In this document: positions 44,645-48,772 of the stretch, one piece after another | Position numbering within the stretch: position 1 is the stretch's first letter | Layout: the number at the start of each line of letters is the position of its first letter | Source of the DNA: Thermoplasmata archaeon | GTDB lineage: Archaea > Thermoplasmatota > Thermoplasmata > Thermoplasmatales > ARK-15 | DNA: 64,000 nucleotides | Assembly: GCA_038729465.1 (NCBI GenBank) | Contig: JAVYRZ010000001.1 | Location: forward strand, 101,361-165,360 | Reading direction: 5' to 3' | Translations under genes and position numbers: made by a program | Notes under the pieces: generated by a model | Told to the model about the DNA's origin: nothing | Seen by the model: only the letters and a program-made list of their open reading frames with translations | The model's database searches: none

Positions 44645-44717
44645 GGGCCGGTAGATCAGCTGGTAGATCGTTTGCTTCGCAAGCAAAAGGCCTCGGGTTC
44701 AAATCCCGACCGGTCCA
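44645..44717 (+). tRNA. tRNA-Ala (anticodon CGC)
   Basis: Acceptor gggccgg/ccggtcc with the G3:U70 identity pair, anticodon stem tttgc/gcaaa with loop ttCGCaa, T arm tcggg-ttcaaat-cccga. Confidence 0.9.
44699..44717 (+). repeat. attL-like core: last 19 nt of tRNA-Ala (tcaaatcccgaccggtcca)
   Basis: Repeated at 47783-47801 with one mismatch. Confidence 0.8.
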
Positions 44718-45131
44718 TTTAGTAATTATTGGAATAATTTAAGTCTAGATTCTTTGAATATCTTAAAATGATTATCTAGAGTGTAAAAATTATAACAGTT
44801 ATCGATTGCATATATTTTGACCACTTTTTATATACCATTCTACGTGGGCTTATCATTCCTTATAATTTGATATAGTCTTATCAATATATTATGTATTGAG
44901 TATACATCATGTCCTTTATTTGGAAGATAAAGAAACATTCAGGAACACAACTTGAAAAGGTAGAATCTATATTTGAGAATGGACAAACAAGGCAGAAGGT
45001 CTATTACTACATAGGAAAGTAGATTGAAGGAAAGCCTGTTTAGAGAATTGTATCAAAATCCGTCAGAGTGAAGCTTTGGGCGGATCATACGTATGCACCA
45101 AAATGTGTGCATGTTAACTTTTGGTGATTGT

Positions 45132-45404
45132 ATGAACCTCGTGGAACGTTTCGTTATCATCCTCATTTCTTTCATTTCCCTGGGATTTTTTTATCAATAC
45201 AATATTGGAACAAACAACTTACCACTTTATTCAATTTTCCTTAGAATTCTGTGGTTAGAACTAACGATTAGCTTATTAGTATATACCGTATTTAAAATGG
45301 ACACGAAAAGATATCCATTCTTATTAGGCTTATTTACTTTTGGAGGTCTATGGTTTATTATTAAGCACAGAAATAAGCAAGTATGGTTTACTAAGCTAAG
45401 ATAG
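45132..45404 (+). CDS. Small membrane protein (about 3 TM), island cargo
   Basis: Hydrophobic segments FVIILISFISLGFF, ILWLELTISLLVYTVF and FLLGLFTFGGLWFII. The start is uncertain (track start 45093). Confidence 0.4.
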   Translation: MNLVERFVIILISFISLGFFYQYNIGTNNLPLYSIFLRILWLELTISLLVYTVFKMDTKRYPFLLGLFTFGGLWFIIKHRNKQVWFTKLR

Positions 45405-45590
45405 AGCAAAATTCCTTTATAAGGCCCTTTGTCGAAAAGTGTGTAACTTGAATATAAGCCGTTTGATCCGATTTTTATTTGATTTTATGCTTGTCGGTAA
45501 TATTTATATTGAAAACGATTTAAGCAATAAAACGCAGGTTTTATTTCAATTTCTTTGACATTTTCCGATACAAGAAAGTGTATGTAAAAA

Positions 45591-45603
45591 TTTATATATA
45601 AAA
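45591..45603 (+). promoter_or_regulatory. TATA-box-like element (tttatatataaaa) about 26 nt upstream of the 45622 ATG, compatible with a leaderless transcript
   Basis: Position and sequence relative to the ATG only. No experimental support. Confidence 0.35.
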
Positions 45604-45621
45604 TAGTCATATTTATATTGT

Positions 45622-46263
45622 ATGACTTGCAGTAATTGTTTTGATTCAAAGGGAAGGAAAATAACCAAGATAAGTGTACCACATACAGAGACCTATGAGC
45701 TCGGGAAAGCTAAAGCAACTGAGGGAGTTACTGTTGTGCAATTTAAGGAAGGCCCTGCGGCAATCCTCAACTGGAAATATATCATTGAGGGAGAAACTTC
45801 ATCAAACGCTTCAATTACATACATAATACAACACAACGGGAAAACAATAACAAACAAGTTCAAGACAAAGTATGTTGACACTATCAGTGGCAAAAAAATT
45901 GTTCATGTTGAAGGAAGTGGGTTGAGCTCAGATGGCAAAGTTACTATCACAAACAAGAATGTTGCTCTTTCAAACGTGAAATCAGACCCAAACGCTATTG
46001 AATGCCTTATTTGCCACGCACTTGGAACTGTGCTTTGTACCATTCTTGCTGATGGAGTTTCAGAAGATTTGGCTTGTGAAGAAGCATCAGCTATTGTTTG
46101 CCTAGAATTCATTGAGGACCCTATAGTTTATGTTGTCTGTTTTGGGGTTGTGGCATCTATCTGCGATGTTGTTCTTCAGACAATAATAGATATCGGTGTC
46201 CATGTGGCTTGCGAATTAGGTGCTGATTATATATGTGAGAAAGCAACGGGGTGCTCTCTGTGA
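45622..46263 (+). CDS. Halocin C8-like archaeocin precursor candidate: beta-rich N-terminal domain + hydrophobic C-terminal domain with 10 Cys
   Basis: 213 aa. Residues about 128-211 (CLICHALGTVLC...ACEE...IVC...VVC...SIC...VAC...YICEKATGC) contain exactly 10 Cys in a hydrophobic 84-aa stretch, resembling the 10-Cys mature HalC8 peptide as I recall it. Confidence 0.55.
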   Translation: MTCSNCFDSKGRKITKISVPHTETYELGKAKATEGVTVVQFKEGPAAILNWKYIIEGETSSNASITYIIQHNGKTITNKFKTKYVDTISGKKIVHVEGSGLSSDGKVTITNKNVALSNVKSDPNAIECLICHALGTVLCTILADGVSEDLACEEASAIVCLEFIEDPIVYVVCFGVVASICDVVLQTIIDIGVHVACELGADYICEKATGCSL

Positions 46264-46306
46264 TACATTTGAATAGCTATACTCACACATAAGAAGGTGT
46301 CTTTCT

Positions 46307-46834
46307 ATGAGGTATAGGTTGGTTTATATAGGTTTAGGCATCGCAATTATGGTTGTTGACACCGTGTTCGCTCTCAGATACCCACGAATCTTAATTTACA
46401 GTTTCTTTGGATCTTATATTGGATTCTTTATACCATTTGGAATAGGTCTATCAACTTTCCTGTATGGTGTATTTAAGGCACGGGATTACGGAATAAACAC
46501 TGCAATGGGGATTTTGGGCTCTGGAGGATTTACAAGGGTCCTGAGACAAAACAGAATACAAGGAACCAGAACATGGAAAACTGACCATGATATCCTCTCT
46601 GAACTTCCAGGTGCAGTAAAATCACCCGACGGAAAAACTGTAGAATACAGTAATCTCTTCATTAGAAAGCCCTATGGAACAACAAAATATTCAAGAAGAC
46701 TTAACGAAGCCGCTAATAAATACCTAAATGGTGAATTGGATGATGAAGGCTTTTATAAGTACATCGGAAAGCACGGTTCAAAAGAGGAGCAGATGCTCGA
46801 TTTCATTAAGAAATTTAAGAATGCTTATAAATGA
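46307..46834 (+). CDS. Membrane protein (3 N-terminal TM + about 90-aa basic soluble tail), island cargo
   Basis: ORF with the hydrophobic segments LVYIGLGIAIMVVDTVFAL, ILIYSFFGSYIGFFIPFGIGLSTFLYGVF. No recognised domain. Confidence 0.45.
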   Translation: MRYRLVYIGLGIAIMVVDTVFALRYPRILIYSFFGSYIGFFIPFGIGLSTFLYGVFKARDYGINTAMGILGSGGFTRVLRQNRIQGTRTWKTDHDILSELPGAVKSPDGKTVEYSNLFIRKPYGTTKYSRRLNEAANKYLNGELDDEGFYKYIGKHGSKEEQMLDFIKKFKNAYK

Positions 46835-46843
46835 AGTGGTAAA

Positions 46844-47092
46844 ATGGTTAGATTTCATCCAGTAAACCGGACAATGACAATTGGTACGTTCATGTTTATC
46901 GTATCTTTGATCGTGCTGGCAATTGGTTCTATATCCCATACCAATGGAACAGTCTTAGCTTACTGTTTTCTGTACGGAGGTCTTGCTTTCCTAGTCTCCT
47001 TAATCTTGTTGACAATAGGCTTAATACTGGGGGCTAGAAGCGGAAAGTTGCAAAGGAGAGGCAGTGATATATTCCACAAAGAGAAGAAATAA
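46844..47092 (+). CDS. Small 2-TM protein, island cargo
   Basis: 82 aa with hydrophobic segments TIGTFMFIVSLIVLAIG and AYCFLYGGLAFLVSLILLTIGLILGA. Confidence 0.45.
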   Translation: MVRFHPVNRTMTIGTFMFIVSLIVLAIGSISHTNGTVLAYCFLYGGLAFLVSLILLTIGLILGARSGKLQRRGSDIFHKEKK

Positions 47093-47130
47093 AATGTTTG
47101 TTAAGCATGTTAGAATAGCTTGGTGATAAA

Positions 47131-47388
47131 ATGAAAGATAAACTAGGTGAAGATGTTAGTCCTGTAAAGATAGGATTTTTCATTGCATTTGTAGTTGTAC
47201 TTGCCTTTGGACTAATTTCTGTGTTTATATTGCATTCACATATACTTGCTTTCATTACAATTCCTTTGATTTTCATACTCTTCATCATAACGGTCATTTT
47301 TCAATATAAAGATGTAAAAAGTGGTGCTTATCAGAGAAAGATGGACAAACTCTGGCAGAACACAAAGGATAAATATTATAGGAAGTGA
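47131..47388 (+). CDS. Small 2-TM protein, island cargo
   Basis: 85 aa with hydrophobic segments IGFFIAFVVVLAFGLISVFIL and ILAFITIPLIFILFIITVIF. Confidence 0.45.
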   Translation: MKDKLGEDVSPVKIGFFIAFVVVLAFGLISVFILHSHILAFITIPLIFILFIITVIFQYKDVKSGAYQRKMDKLWQNTKDKYYRK

Positions 47389-47633
47389 GAATTATGATAA
47401 ACTCTGAAAAAATCCTTTTGAAAGCGGGTATTTATGCCCTTCTCGTATATTCTCTTATTTCTATAGTATCGTATTTTGCACTTTACTTTAGAAAAATAGG
47501 TAATTTTACAAACTTGCTGAATTCTGGTATCGATGTTTTGCTTTTCATTCCGCTGTATGTAATAATTTTAGTATTGTATTTCTCCTACATCAGGGTAATC
47601 GATAGAAATGGTCAACATGGAAAAACTCTGTGA
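47385..47633 (+). CDS. Small 2-TM protein, island cargo
   Basis: 82 aa. 4-nt overlap with the preceding ORF. Hydrophobic segments AGIYALLVYSLISIVSYFALYF and VLLFIPLYVIILVLYF. Confidence 0.45.
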   Translation: MRIMINSEKILLKAGIYALLVYSLISIVSYFALYFRKIGNFTNLLNSGIDVLLFIPLYVIILVLYFSYIRVIDRNGQHGKTL

Positions 47634-47778
47634 AAGCTTAAAAGACGGAAACCTATAAACTCAAATAATAACCTGGAATTTCCATTAATGGATAAGAATC
47701 AGGTCTAAGTGTAATTCAAAATATTTTATTGCTTTATTTTAGGTAATAGATCCTTATTTTTAGTATCCCCTTAAAACT

Positions 47779-48257
47779 TTAATCAAATACCGACCGGTCC
47801 ACACCATCCAGATCCACTAGTTTTTGTACTGTCAGAAAAAAGTTCGATTTTCTCACCTCGTTTATGGCGTCATCTCGAGATGGATGCAGATAGATCTGCG
47901 TACTAGACAGGTTTCTATGCCTAATAATAGAGCAACATAATAGACAGACAGTCCTTTTTTCAATAATTCTGTGGCATAGGTATGCCTGGCCATATGCAGG
48001 TGAAACTTGACCTCAGCTTTTAAGGATATACGTTCGCAGAGGCTTCTGAAATAGTCATACCTCATCTTTCCTATTTTTGTAGTGAAAAGATACTTTTTAG
48101 TAGTGTGTAATCTCACTTTCAGATACTCATCAATTGCATATCTGAATGCGACACACAACATAATGAAAAAAGCAATTTCCGAAGCATTTAGAGGCGGGAT
48201 AGAGAGTATTGGGTTATACCCGCAAAATTTAAGCATCAAAGAGATTATAACTTTCAA
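47779..48257 (-). pseudogene. Tyrosine recombinase (integrase) remnant: N-terminally truncated and frameshifted
   Basis: The track ORF carries HLHMARHTYATELLKKG...LLLG. After an apparent 1-nt deletion near 47919/47920, the adjacent frame reads HRNLSSTQIYLH (box II with catalytic Tyr codon at 47890-47892). That frame continues through the att repeat to a stop at 47779-47781. Confidence 0.75.
47783..47801 (+). repeat. attR-like copy of the tRNA-Ala 3' end (tcaaataccgaccggtcca, 18/19 identical)
   Basis: Direct comparison with 44699-44717. It lies inside the 3' coding end of the integrase pseudogene. Confidence 0.8.
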
Positions 48258-48367: not shown

Positions 48368-48772
48368 TTGATAGAAGGAAAGAAGATAGATATGACAGGT
48401 TGGTATTTTGATCATTCAAAAGGAAAGCAAGTATTTGGTTTGCAGCTAGTTAATTCTGTTTATTCGGAGGGCTATGGAATATATCCAATAATATTAACAC
48501 CTTACAAAAAAAATAACAGCACAGAGAAATACAGATCAAAAATAGAGAATCAAAAAGATAACATCAAAAAGTGTTTAGATAACAATTTGAAATTTAGCAC
48601 AGTAGTAATGGATAACTGGTATTTTAGTAATGATTCAGTGCAATATATAGAATCATTTAGGGAGAGCAGGGTTGCAGAGACGAAACTAAATCGATTAATT
48701 AACGTAGCTGATGAATTAGTAAAGAAGAGTATTTCAAATGCATATAAATCAACAATGGCGTTAAAAACATGA
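48368..48772 (+). pseudogene. DDE transposase fragment (IS4/IS701-like), truncated
   Basis: 134 aa containing the VVMDNWYFSNDSV-type second-Asp region and a GWYFDHSKGK segment. Full-length enzymes are about three times longer. Out-of-frame debris (LVIEKTGKH) lies upstream at about 48272-48343. Confidence 0.5.

Follow-up and report, generated by a model that had tools for sequence, protein, structure and literature searches.

A putative halocin C8-like archaeocin precursor and its membrane-protein neighbours on a tRNA-Ala islet of a Thermoplasmata archaeon

In a 64,000-nt stretch of DNA from an uncultured Thermoplasmata archaeon (GenBank assembly GCA_038729465.1, contig JAVYRZ010000001.1, positions 101,361 to 165,360 of the forward strand; hereafter the window), we examined a gene for a protein of 213 amino acids (aa) whose last 84 residues form a hydrophobic domain with ten cysteines, akin to that of the secreted toxin halocin C8 (HalC8). 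We propose, with a probability of about 0.6, that this gene encodes the precursor of an archaeocin of the halocin C8 superfamily, and that membrane proteins encoded next to it would act as its partners in immunity or release. The gene lies on a small islet at a tRNA-Ala gene, and related cassettes occur in other acidophilic archaea. To our knowledge no archaeocin has been demonstrated in Thermoplasmatales, and from thermoacidophiles we know only of the sulfolobicins and one viral toxin. HalC8-like domains outside halophiles are said to have been catalogued by Makarova and colleagues in 2019.

Profile matches of the ten-cysteine domain

The family assignment comes from the NCBIfam profile TIGR04449 (halocin C8-like domain, halocin_C8_dom), which has a length of 69 positions and a curated cut-off of 24 bits. 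Residues 128-211 of the window protein span the entire profile (1-69/69), and the domain alone scores 25.2-25.6 bits (E 1.9e-5). When 1.84 billion representative proteins were searched exhaustively at E <=0.001, only 16 matched. Ten of the 16 possess the Cys domain, and none of the ten Cys varies in them, even among relatives only ~30% identical. All 10 family members scanned match TIGR04449 (best E 5e-12), and five score above the cut-off, each over profile positions 1-69/69: P0039 (45.2 bits), P0029 (43.0 bits), P0034 (36.2 bits), P0038 (35.6 bits) and P0037 (25.8 bits). P0029 aligns end to end with the window protein (E 2.2e-17) and has the same N-terminal beta domain, which is also common to P0026 and P0027. 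Because P0029 can be aligned over its full length and itself scores 43 bits, the window protein is homologous to the HalC8-like domain by transitivity. An initial annotation, made from the letters of the window without database searches, had recognised a HalC8-like C-terminus, and this is borne out by the full-profile match of the domain and by the 43-45 bits of the relatives. Judged by these matches, the C-terminal domain belongs to the HalC8-like domain superfamily, within which it forms a divergent subfamily that stands far from the characterised halocin. The TIGR04449 cut-off narrowly misses this subfamily, which explains why the orthologues still go by the names 'hypothetical protein' (NCBI) and 'Predicted metal-binding protein' (UniRef).

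Other searches added little. Pfam gave no significant match to the 213-aa protein (TIG, E 0.0015, lies across the domain border and below the cut-off), the PHROG profiles offered nothing of use here, and there is no second HalC8-like domain in the window. An alignment of the C-terminal domain, used as a profile against an index of 5.8 billion proteins, retrieved known family members only; the haloarchaeal HalC8 alignment, used in the same way against the same index, returned one protein. For direct comparison we took haloarchaeal HalC8-like proteins from plasmids. In a single pairwise BLASTP comparison with one of these, the hairpin from C4 to C7 aligned in register (39% identity over 36 aa, E 0.002). 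The Cys spacings of the Haloferax volcanii HalC8-like protein are 2, 7, 3, 7, 13, 7, 8, 8 and 6, and seven of the nine lie within one residue of those in the window protein; the other two are longer in the latter, by an insertion of 9 residues between C3 and C4 (12 versus 3) and one of 7 between C7 and C8 (15 versus 8). The two Cys domains are also nearly equal in grand average of hydropathy (GRAVY), at 1.22 in the window versus 1.16 in Hfx. volcanii.

A two-part protein under strong purifying selection

The 84-residue segment (residues 128-211, nt 46003-46254; CLICHALGTVLC...YICEKATGC) contains exactly 10 Cys, spaced 2, 7, 12, 7, 12, 7, 15, 7 and 5. Given a background Cys frequency of 0.77%, calculated over the residues of the 44 open reading frames (ORFs) of at least 200 aa in the window, the binomial probability of at least 10 Cys in 84 residues is ~1e-9, and any other 84-aa stretch, in all six frames of the window, has at most 8. 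Hydrophobic as it is, the segment has 13 Asp/Glu and a single Lys. Residues 1-120, by contrast, are of a hydrophilic and basic composition (GRAVY -0.34 vs +1.22 for the C-terminal segment), and the two parts of the protein bear opposite net charges, +7 (pI 9.35) in the N-terminal part and -13 (pI 4.05) in the C-terminal part. The composition described in the initial annotation, namely a strongly hydrophobic ten-Cys end behind a hydrophilic, beta-strand-like N-terminal domain, therefore holds on both counts. The same annotation could not recognise a Tat or Sec signal at the N-terminus, and indeed residues 1-120 contain neither a hydrophobic stretch nor an RR motif. A hidden N-terminal extension or signal peptide is ruled out as well, because the stop-free frame opens only 5 codons before the ATG. 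The assignment of the host to the Thermoplasmata, also made there, agrees with the neighbouring HtpX and RecJ-like proteins, which cluster at 90% identity only with proteins of 'Thermoplasmata archaeon' metagenome-assembled genomes (MAGs) where these are named.

Selection on the gene was analysed with eight distinct alleles from related contigs. The ratio of nonsynonymous to synonymous substitution rates (dN/dS) was 0.02-0.15 overall and 0.02-0.05 between lineages with saturated synonymous sites (dS 1.3-2.8). Taken by domain, it was 0.01-0.02 for the C-terminal domain, where dS is saturated, and ~0.05 for the N-terminal domain, with a range of 0.04-0.14 where dS suffices for an estimate. Orthologues from different genera are 83-93% identical in protein sequence and, as dN/dS is low at saturated dS, this identity largely reflects protein constraint and not only recent transfer. 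Intact 213-aa copies are present on dozens of contigs from several genera; isolates of Cuniculiplasma divulgatum and the cultivable type strain Thermoplasma volcanium GSS1 have an orthologue that is 89% identical to the window protein. By these measures of selection and distribution, the 213-aa ORF is a real, strongly conserved gene.

Predicted structure and disulfide framework

An AlphaFold2 model of the 213-aa protein, built with a 13-sequence alignment, had a mean predicted local distance difference test score (pLDDT) of 80.8 and a predicted template modelling score (pTM) of 0.72. It places seven long strands in residues 13-115, in line with the beta-strand-like character noted in the initial annotation, and five helices in residues 123-209. 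Between the two domains lies an Asp-Pro pair in a flexible linker. Such a pair stands 5-6 residues ahead of the first Cys in 7 of 12 lineages, all long forms included. Two segments (124-147 and 155-195) lie above the Kyte-Doolittle transmembrane-type threshold. Foldseek at E <=0.001 retrieved nothing for the full model from PDB and BFVD, and nothing for the N-terminal domain model alone from PDB. LacZ, NTF2-like, Bet v 1-like and BPI-like folds appeared as weak top matches in these searches and were not taken as evidence.

The arrangement of the cysteines is consistent with disulfide bonds between the helices. Most relatives have 12 Cys, with a C-x3-C-x3-C pattern on predicted helix 2 and again on predicted helix 3, and this i, i+4, i+8 spacing lines the Cys up along a single face of each helix, which is what an antiparallel hairpin stapled by three disulfides would require. 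The subfamily of the window protein is without the middle Cys on both helices 2 and 3, and the joint absence fits mutual pairing of those two Cys. In P0025 only one of the two middle Cys is missing, and an extra C-terminal Cys is present. Read onto the model, the disulfides would staple the helices into a compact bundle. The N-terminus contains a further CxxC, at residues 3-6 (CSNC, 45628-45639), which is kept in all 213-aa orthologues. Its counterpart in other long relatives is a Cys pair in the N-terminal domain, close to residue 100.

A mobile cassette with repeated loss of the putative toxin gene

The islet is flanked by two copies of a 19-nt repeat, the 3' end of tRNA-Ala and an imperfect copy of it, which are 3.08 kb apart (Table 1). 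These are the only matches to the repeat at <=3 mismatches in the window, with 0 expected from shuffles. All ORFs between them are on the plus strand and closely spaced, and none encodes an integrase. A stretch of 41 nt from the region of the right-hand repeat recurs in two other loci (L021 and L032), and the related elements of T. volcanium, C. divulgatum and Metallosphaera cuprina likewise lie behind tRNA-Ala(CGC). From the tRNA-Ala gene to exactly 47802 (window 44645-47802), the DNA is 89-91% identical to that of M. cuprina Ar-4 (CP002656; L035 4424-7744), a member of the Sulfolobales, which points to recent interphylum transfer of an islet without an integrase of its own. The carriage on a mobile islet that had been suggested from the window alone is thus supported both by the att-like repeats at tRNA-Ala and by this similarity.

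Complete elements were found in T. volcanium GSS1, C. divulgatum and several MAGs. In these, tRNA-Ala(CGC) is followed by a gene for a 429-aa integrase-like protein (PHROG integrase, E 1.4e-5) and then, in this order, by the genes for the 213-aa, 175-aa and 84-aa proteins; the next ~7 kb contain further ORFs and the genes for a 591-aa AAA ATPase, ParA and a resolvase. Over 7.2 kb of this ~10-kb element, the DNA of T. volcanium (L039 6394-13600) and that of C. divulgatum are 95-97% identical, which means that it spread between genera recently. The T. volcanium segment was set against L005, L019, L037, L038 and L040, and this degree of identity links different Thermoplasmatales genera. We found no description of the ~10-kb tRNA-Ala element in the literature examined. 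The cassette thus travels as cargo on integrative elements that are specific for tRNA-Ala(CGC) and pass from one acidophilic archaeon to another.

The genes downstream of the 213-aa gene have fared differently from the toxin gene itself. Both orf175 (dN/dS 0.04-0.14) and orf82a (0.1-0.3) are under purifying selection, and both are kept where the toxin has been lost independently, namely in Acidiplasma aeolicum (C-terminal domain deleted), in I-plasma (internal deletion) and in M. cuprina (whole gene). Ferroplasma Type II and another MAG similarly keep the downstream genes behind a 213-aa gene that is truncated after the N-terminal domain. By analogy, independent toxin loss with retention of the downstream genes resembles a pattern typical of toxin loci. 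The loss in M. cuprina is clean, with 12 nt in place of window 45604-46288, and here an 800-nt insert after orf82a brings in a second HalC8-like ORF of the P0039 type, which has lost its last Cys. In L032, the gene immediately downstream of that for P0039 encodes an 87-aa protein homologous to orf82a (52% identity, E 7e-28), and the right-hand repeat sequence comes next, as in the window. Small ORFs predicted to form two membrane helices also stand behind the HalC8-like genes in L030 and in Halobacterium. Among the islet genes, orf82a is the best candidate for an immunity or release function. One Thermoplasmata MAG contig contains a tandem duplication of the whole 213-175-82-70 cassette (L017 3651-5370 and 5643-7362).

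A toxin-plus-immunity model

In the model that we favour, disulfides would join helices 2 and 3 into a hairpin and tie helix 1 to helices 4 and 5; the bundle stapled in this way would attack the membrane of competing wall-less acidophilic archaea. Inside the producer, the basic N-terminal domain would mask the acidic C-terminal domain and keep the toxin soluble and harmless. The exposed Asp122-Pro123 linker would be the place where the two halves come apart. Hot acid breaks Asp-Pro bonds without an enzyme, and given this acid lability the cleavage could be spontaneous outside cells that live at pH 1-2. Once outside, the released half would become a membrane-active peptide as its 13 Asp/Glu took up protons. 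Because a signal peptide and a transporter gene are absent, we propose that the downstream membrane proteins take part in immunity or release; orf175, orf82a, orf85 and orf82b may provide either function or both. Export might proceed by vesicles, by lysis or through the small membrane proteins.

An extended form of this proposal holds that an integrase-less 3-kb islet has passed between phyla (Thermoplasmatota and Sulfolobales) carrying a signal-less archaeocin armed by the environment, that is, one kept inert at cytoplasmic pH by the basic beta domain that masks its acidic toxin domain, and whose Asp122-Pro123 bond, once outside, would be hydrolysed without an enzyme at pH 1-2 and 45-60 C and whose 13 carboxylates would be protonated under these conditions. 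We regard this extended form as rather doubtful. If the peptide is active, the HalC8 scaffold would work at pH 1-2 on tetraether membranes, and the tRNA-Ala elements of acid habitats would be spreading weapon-and-immunity cassettes from genus to genus and from phylum to phylum. The hypothesis is directly testable, with T. volcanium GSS1 as a cultivable carrier.

Several results weigh against a toxin precursor. The profile search proposed in the initial annotation had a divided outcome: the domain alone passes the TIGR04449 cut-off of 24 bits, and the whole protein, at 22.2 bits, stays below it. When non-Cys residues were shuffled with the Cys fixed (n = 10), one of the ten shuffles reached 18.7 bits and the others gave no match, so the Cys framework supplies much of the window protein's own score; by the same control, the 43-45 bits of its relatives are not explained by that framework. 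Family-level comparisons with the haloarchaeal proteins were negative, with a hidden Markov model (HMM) of the family giving non-significant scores of 2.7 and -2.5 bits against two haloarchaeal HalC8-like proteins, and hhalign giving a probability of 1.3% for the family against a three-sequence haloarchaeal profile. A second Asp-Pro pair, at residues 166-167 in a hairpin loop inside the toxin domain, weakens the case for such a pair as a dedicated cleavage site; a cut at this position would leave pieces joined by disulfides. As for export, there is neither a signal peptide nor a transporter gene at the window locus. Purifying selection as strong as that on the 213-aa gene would not usually be expected of an arms-race weapon. 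Lastly, the M. cuprina islet looks generally decayed, and 'orphan immunity' is not the sole reading of the genes that remain in it.

Alternative explanations

The protein might instead serve the mobile element, with its C-terminal domain in the membrane of the carrier itself, where it would exclude related elements, take part in vesicle or particle formation, or act as an addiction-module toxin neutralised by the small membrane proteins. We consider this unlikely, although more probable than the other alternatives. The absence of a signal peptide and the two segments above the transmembrane-type threshold would suit a resident membrane protein, but the 13 Asp/Glu are spread through the helices, unlike in ordinary membrane-spanning helices, and the homologous domain of HalC8 is a secreted toxin. 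The protein is extremely conserved (omega 0.01-0.02), and in complete elements its gene always adjoins the integrase gene and stands beside those for ParA, the resolvase and the AAA ATPase. Its cassette is also kept in reduced islets, as addiction modules are. The toxin domain, on the other hand, has been lost repeatedly without loss of the element, which shows that the element does not need it, and the M. cuprina islet persists even though the 213-aa gene is lost and the second HalC8-like gene degenerate.

Much less probable is a Cys-rich metal-binding or metal-detoxifying protein suited to metal-laden acidic habitats. The UniRef name, the CxxC motifs at residues 3-6 and 128-131 and the metal-rich acid waters inhabited by the hosts (PMC5155288) could all be cited for it; no metal-binding family was matched in Pfam or NCBIfam, however, and the sole significant family match is the HalC8 domain. 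Moreover, Cys at i, i+4 and i+8 of hydrophobic helices suit disulfides between helices and not a metal cluster, and the loss of the middle Cys from both helices together speaks against metal binding as well. A chance ORF or a functionless, decaying relic is brought to mind by the degraded islet, with fragments of an integrase and a transposase beside it, and by several truncated alleles elsewhere, and yet this explanation is in practice refuted by the dN/dS of the eight alleles (0.02-0.05 at saturated dS); the intact copies in several genera and the invariance of all ten Cys at ~30% identity argue likewise.

Comparison with known systems

The closest parallel to the proposed precursor is ProC8 (HalI + HalC8) of Natrinema sp. 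AS7092, in which a hydrophobic ten-Cys domain with the same order of Cys likewise closes a larger protein. A Pro in the loop of the central hairpin is conserved between the two, and in some haloarchaeal loci, too, the gene has a small ORF with two predicted membrane helices behind it. Mature HalC8 begins 6 residues ahead of its first Cys, and the cleavage point proposed here is 5-6 residues ahead of Cys1. The systems differ in several respects. The initial annotation had raised the possibility of an archaeocin/immunity precursor on the pattern of HalI and HalC8. The N-terminal domain, however, is unrelated to HalI: it has no fold match in PDB, and comparison with the Hfx. volcanii precursor gave no similarity outside the Cys domain. 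It may still act as a carrier, a mask or an immunity part. The window protein has no twin-arginine signal, whereas its Hfx. volcanii homologue has RRSFVRR. In addition to the two insertions mentioned above, its Cys domain is strongly acidic, its relatives have 12 Cys, its hosts are acidophiles, and its gene is carried on tRNA-Ala integrative elements. HalC8 has a neighbourhood of halR, halU and ABC-transporter genes, as described in a 2026 preprint (10.64898/2026.07.27.741052). None of halR, halU and halT1-3 (ABC transporter) was found beside the window gene, which is surrounded by genes for small membrane proteins without a family match. For want of a HalI-like part, a Tat signal and halR, halU and transporter neighbours, the gene should not be filed as a ProC8-type precursor, although its product may work like one.

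A toxin of this kind was taken in the initial annotation to be uncharacterised in Thermoplasmata. That still appears to hold, but HalC8 homologues from this group are already listed: Table S2 of the same preprint (10.64898/2026.07.27.741052) has entries for Cuniculiplasma divulgatum, Thermoplasma volcanium GSS1, I-plasma, UBA509 and Metallosphaera cuprina. None of the listed accessions could be tied to the 213-aa subfamily; for C. divulgatum the table gives WP_148690163.1, as against WP_148690135.1 for the 213-aa orthologue. The M. cuprina entry, WP_048057428.1, adjoins in number WP_048057427.1, the homologue of orf82a. The part of the preprint's text considered here names Thermoplasmata solely in connection with halocin H4, does not discuss the HalC8 matches of Thermoplasmatales, and credits Makarova et al. 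2019 with the bacterial homologues and the C8/S8 superfamily. The 213-aa gene is not mentioned in the Cuniculiplasma genome paper (PMC5155288). Since HalC8 homologues outside halophiles, Thermoplasmatales included, have already been listed, the kind of toxin domain is known; what is apparently new is a signal-less, acidic subfamily fused to a beta domain, with a conserved small membrane partner and carried on tRNA-Ala elements that cross genus and phylum.

The cassette also shares traits with polymorphic toxin cassettes. Which HalC8-like gene is present, and at which place, varies between islets, and small membrane proteins are encoded downstream. One locus (L026 2-1315, 3004-3384 and 3807-4379) encodes three proteins whose C-terminal domains are all Cys-rich and hydrophobic but differ from one another; one of the proteins has a rhodanese-like N-terminus, and two of the three share a linker ahead of the domain, KEAxGLSKLVxKQLQEYD, which is a polymorphic-toxin-like trait. 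The window, in contrast, has a single HalC8-like gene and lacks both trafficking domains (RHS, YD or others) and an array of orphan toxin tips. Among thermoacidophilic archaea, sulfolobicins are toxins carried by mobile elements. They and the toxin of chronic Sulfolobus spindle-shaped viruses (SSV) differ from the protein proposed here in not being Cys-stapled helical peptides, and no sequence relationship to either is known. The SSV toxin is nevertheless comparable as a killing factor on an integrating mobile element whose carriers are protected (PMC8628083), and the authors of that study themselves liken it to HalC8 self-immunity.

Genes and sites of the islet

The features of the islet and of its right-hand flank are collected in Table 1.

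Table 1. Coordinates of the 213-aa gene, its domains, the islet and adjacent features (window positions)
Feature	Position	Strand	Evidence or remark
HalC8-like precursor gene (putative), 213 aa	45622..46263	+	ATG start; ORF call, TIGR04449, homologue search, dN/dS
N-terminal basic beta-meander domain, residues 1-122	45622..45987	+	seven strands in AlphaFold2 model; pI 9.35, net charge +7
Asp122-Pro123, flexible inter-domain linker	45985..45990	+	pLDDT <50 at residues 121-123; putative acid-labile cleavage site
HalC8-like 10-Cys hydrophobic, acidic helical domain, residues 128-211	46003..46254	+	TIGR04449, invariant Cys, five helices in AlphaFold2 model
tRNA-Ala (anticodon CGC), integration target	44645..44717	+	ARAGORN
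attL, 19-nt 3' end of the tRNA, TCAAATCCCGACCGGTCCA	44699..44717	+	direct repeat D1
37-aa ORF MSFIWKIKKHSGTQLEKVESIFENGQTRQKVYYYIGK	44909..45022	+	homologous ORF at same place in M. cuprina islet (L035 4668-4826)
orf103, predicted membrane protein	45093..45404	+	hydrophobic segments; conserved in M. cuprina islet (L035 4907-5212)
orf175	46307..46834	+	two or three N-terminal hydrophobic segments and a soluble basic C-terminal part; always after the 213-aa gene
orf82a, 82 aa, two predicted membrane helices	46844..47092	+	90% cluster includes M. cuprina WP_048057427.1
orf85, small hydrophobic protein	47131..47388	+	ORF call, hydrophobicity; weak holin-like Pfam matches below cut-off
orf82b, two predicted membrane helices	47385..47633	+	homologue in M. 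cuprina islet
attR, 18/19 copy of tRNA-Ala 3' end, right islet boundary	47783..47801	+	repeat search; M. cuprina homology stops at 47802
Tyrosine recombinase fragment, 131 aa, outside the islet	47862..48257	-	Pfam Phage_integrase E 2.5e-7, partial (75-155/172); PHROG integrase E 1.7e-9
Possible transposase fragment, weak ISC1217-like match	48368..48772	+	Pfam DDE_Tnp_2 E 0.004, below cut-off

The neighbours of the 213-aa gene on the islet gave no significant Pfam or PHROG match. Either one long hydrophobic region or two hydrophobic segments are present in each of orf82a, orf85 and orf82b. The holin-like Pfam matches of the small membrane proteins (E 0.007-0.04) are below the cut-offs and were treated as an effect of composition, not as a sign of holins. 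Beyond the right-hand repeat, the recombinase and transposase fragments were probably left behind by a second element that had integrated in tandem at this tRNA gene.

Upstream of the 213-aa gene, a TATA-box-like sequence, TTTATATATA, can be read at 45592..45601 (+), ~25 nt 5' of the ATG. By the spacing between TATA box and start that is general to archaeal promoters, this suggests a leaderless transcript. A 15-nt AT-rich motif, GT(A/C)ATATTTATATTG, also occurs twice 5' of the gene, at 45497-45511 and 45606-45620, with the second copy ending one base short of the ATG. The motif may serve in regulation or be no more than a TATA-like repeat.

Relatives of the downstream genes are also encoded elsewhere on the large element of C. 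divulgatum, which contains a second orf82a paralogue (L005 13687-13962, ~50% identity) and a gene for a protein that resembles the C-terminal part of orf175 (L005 15657-16094, 37% identity).

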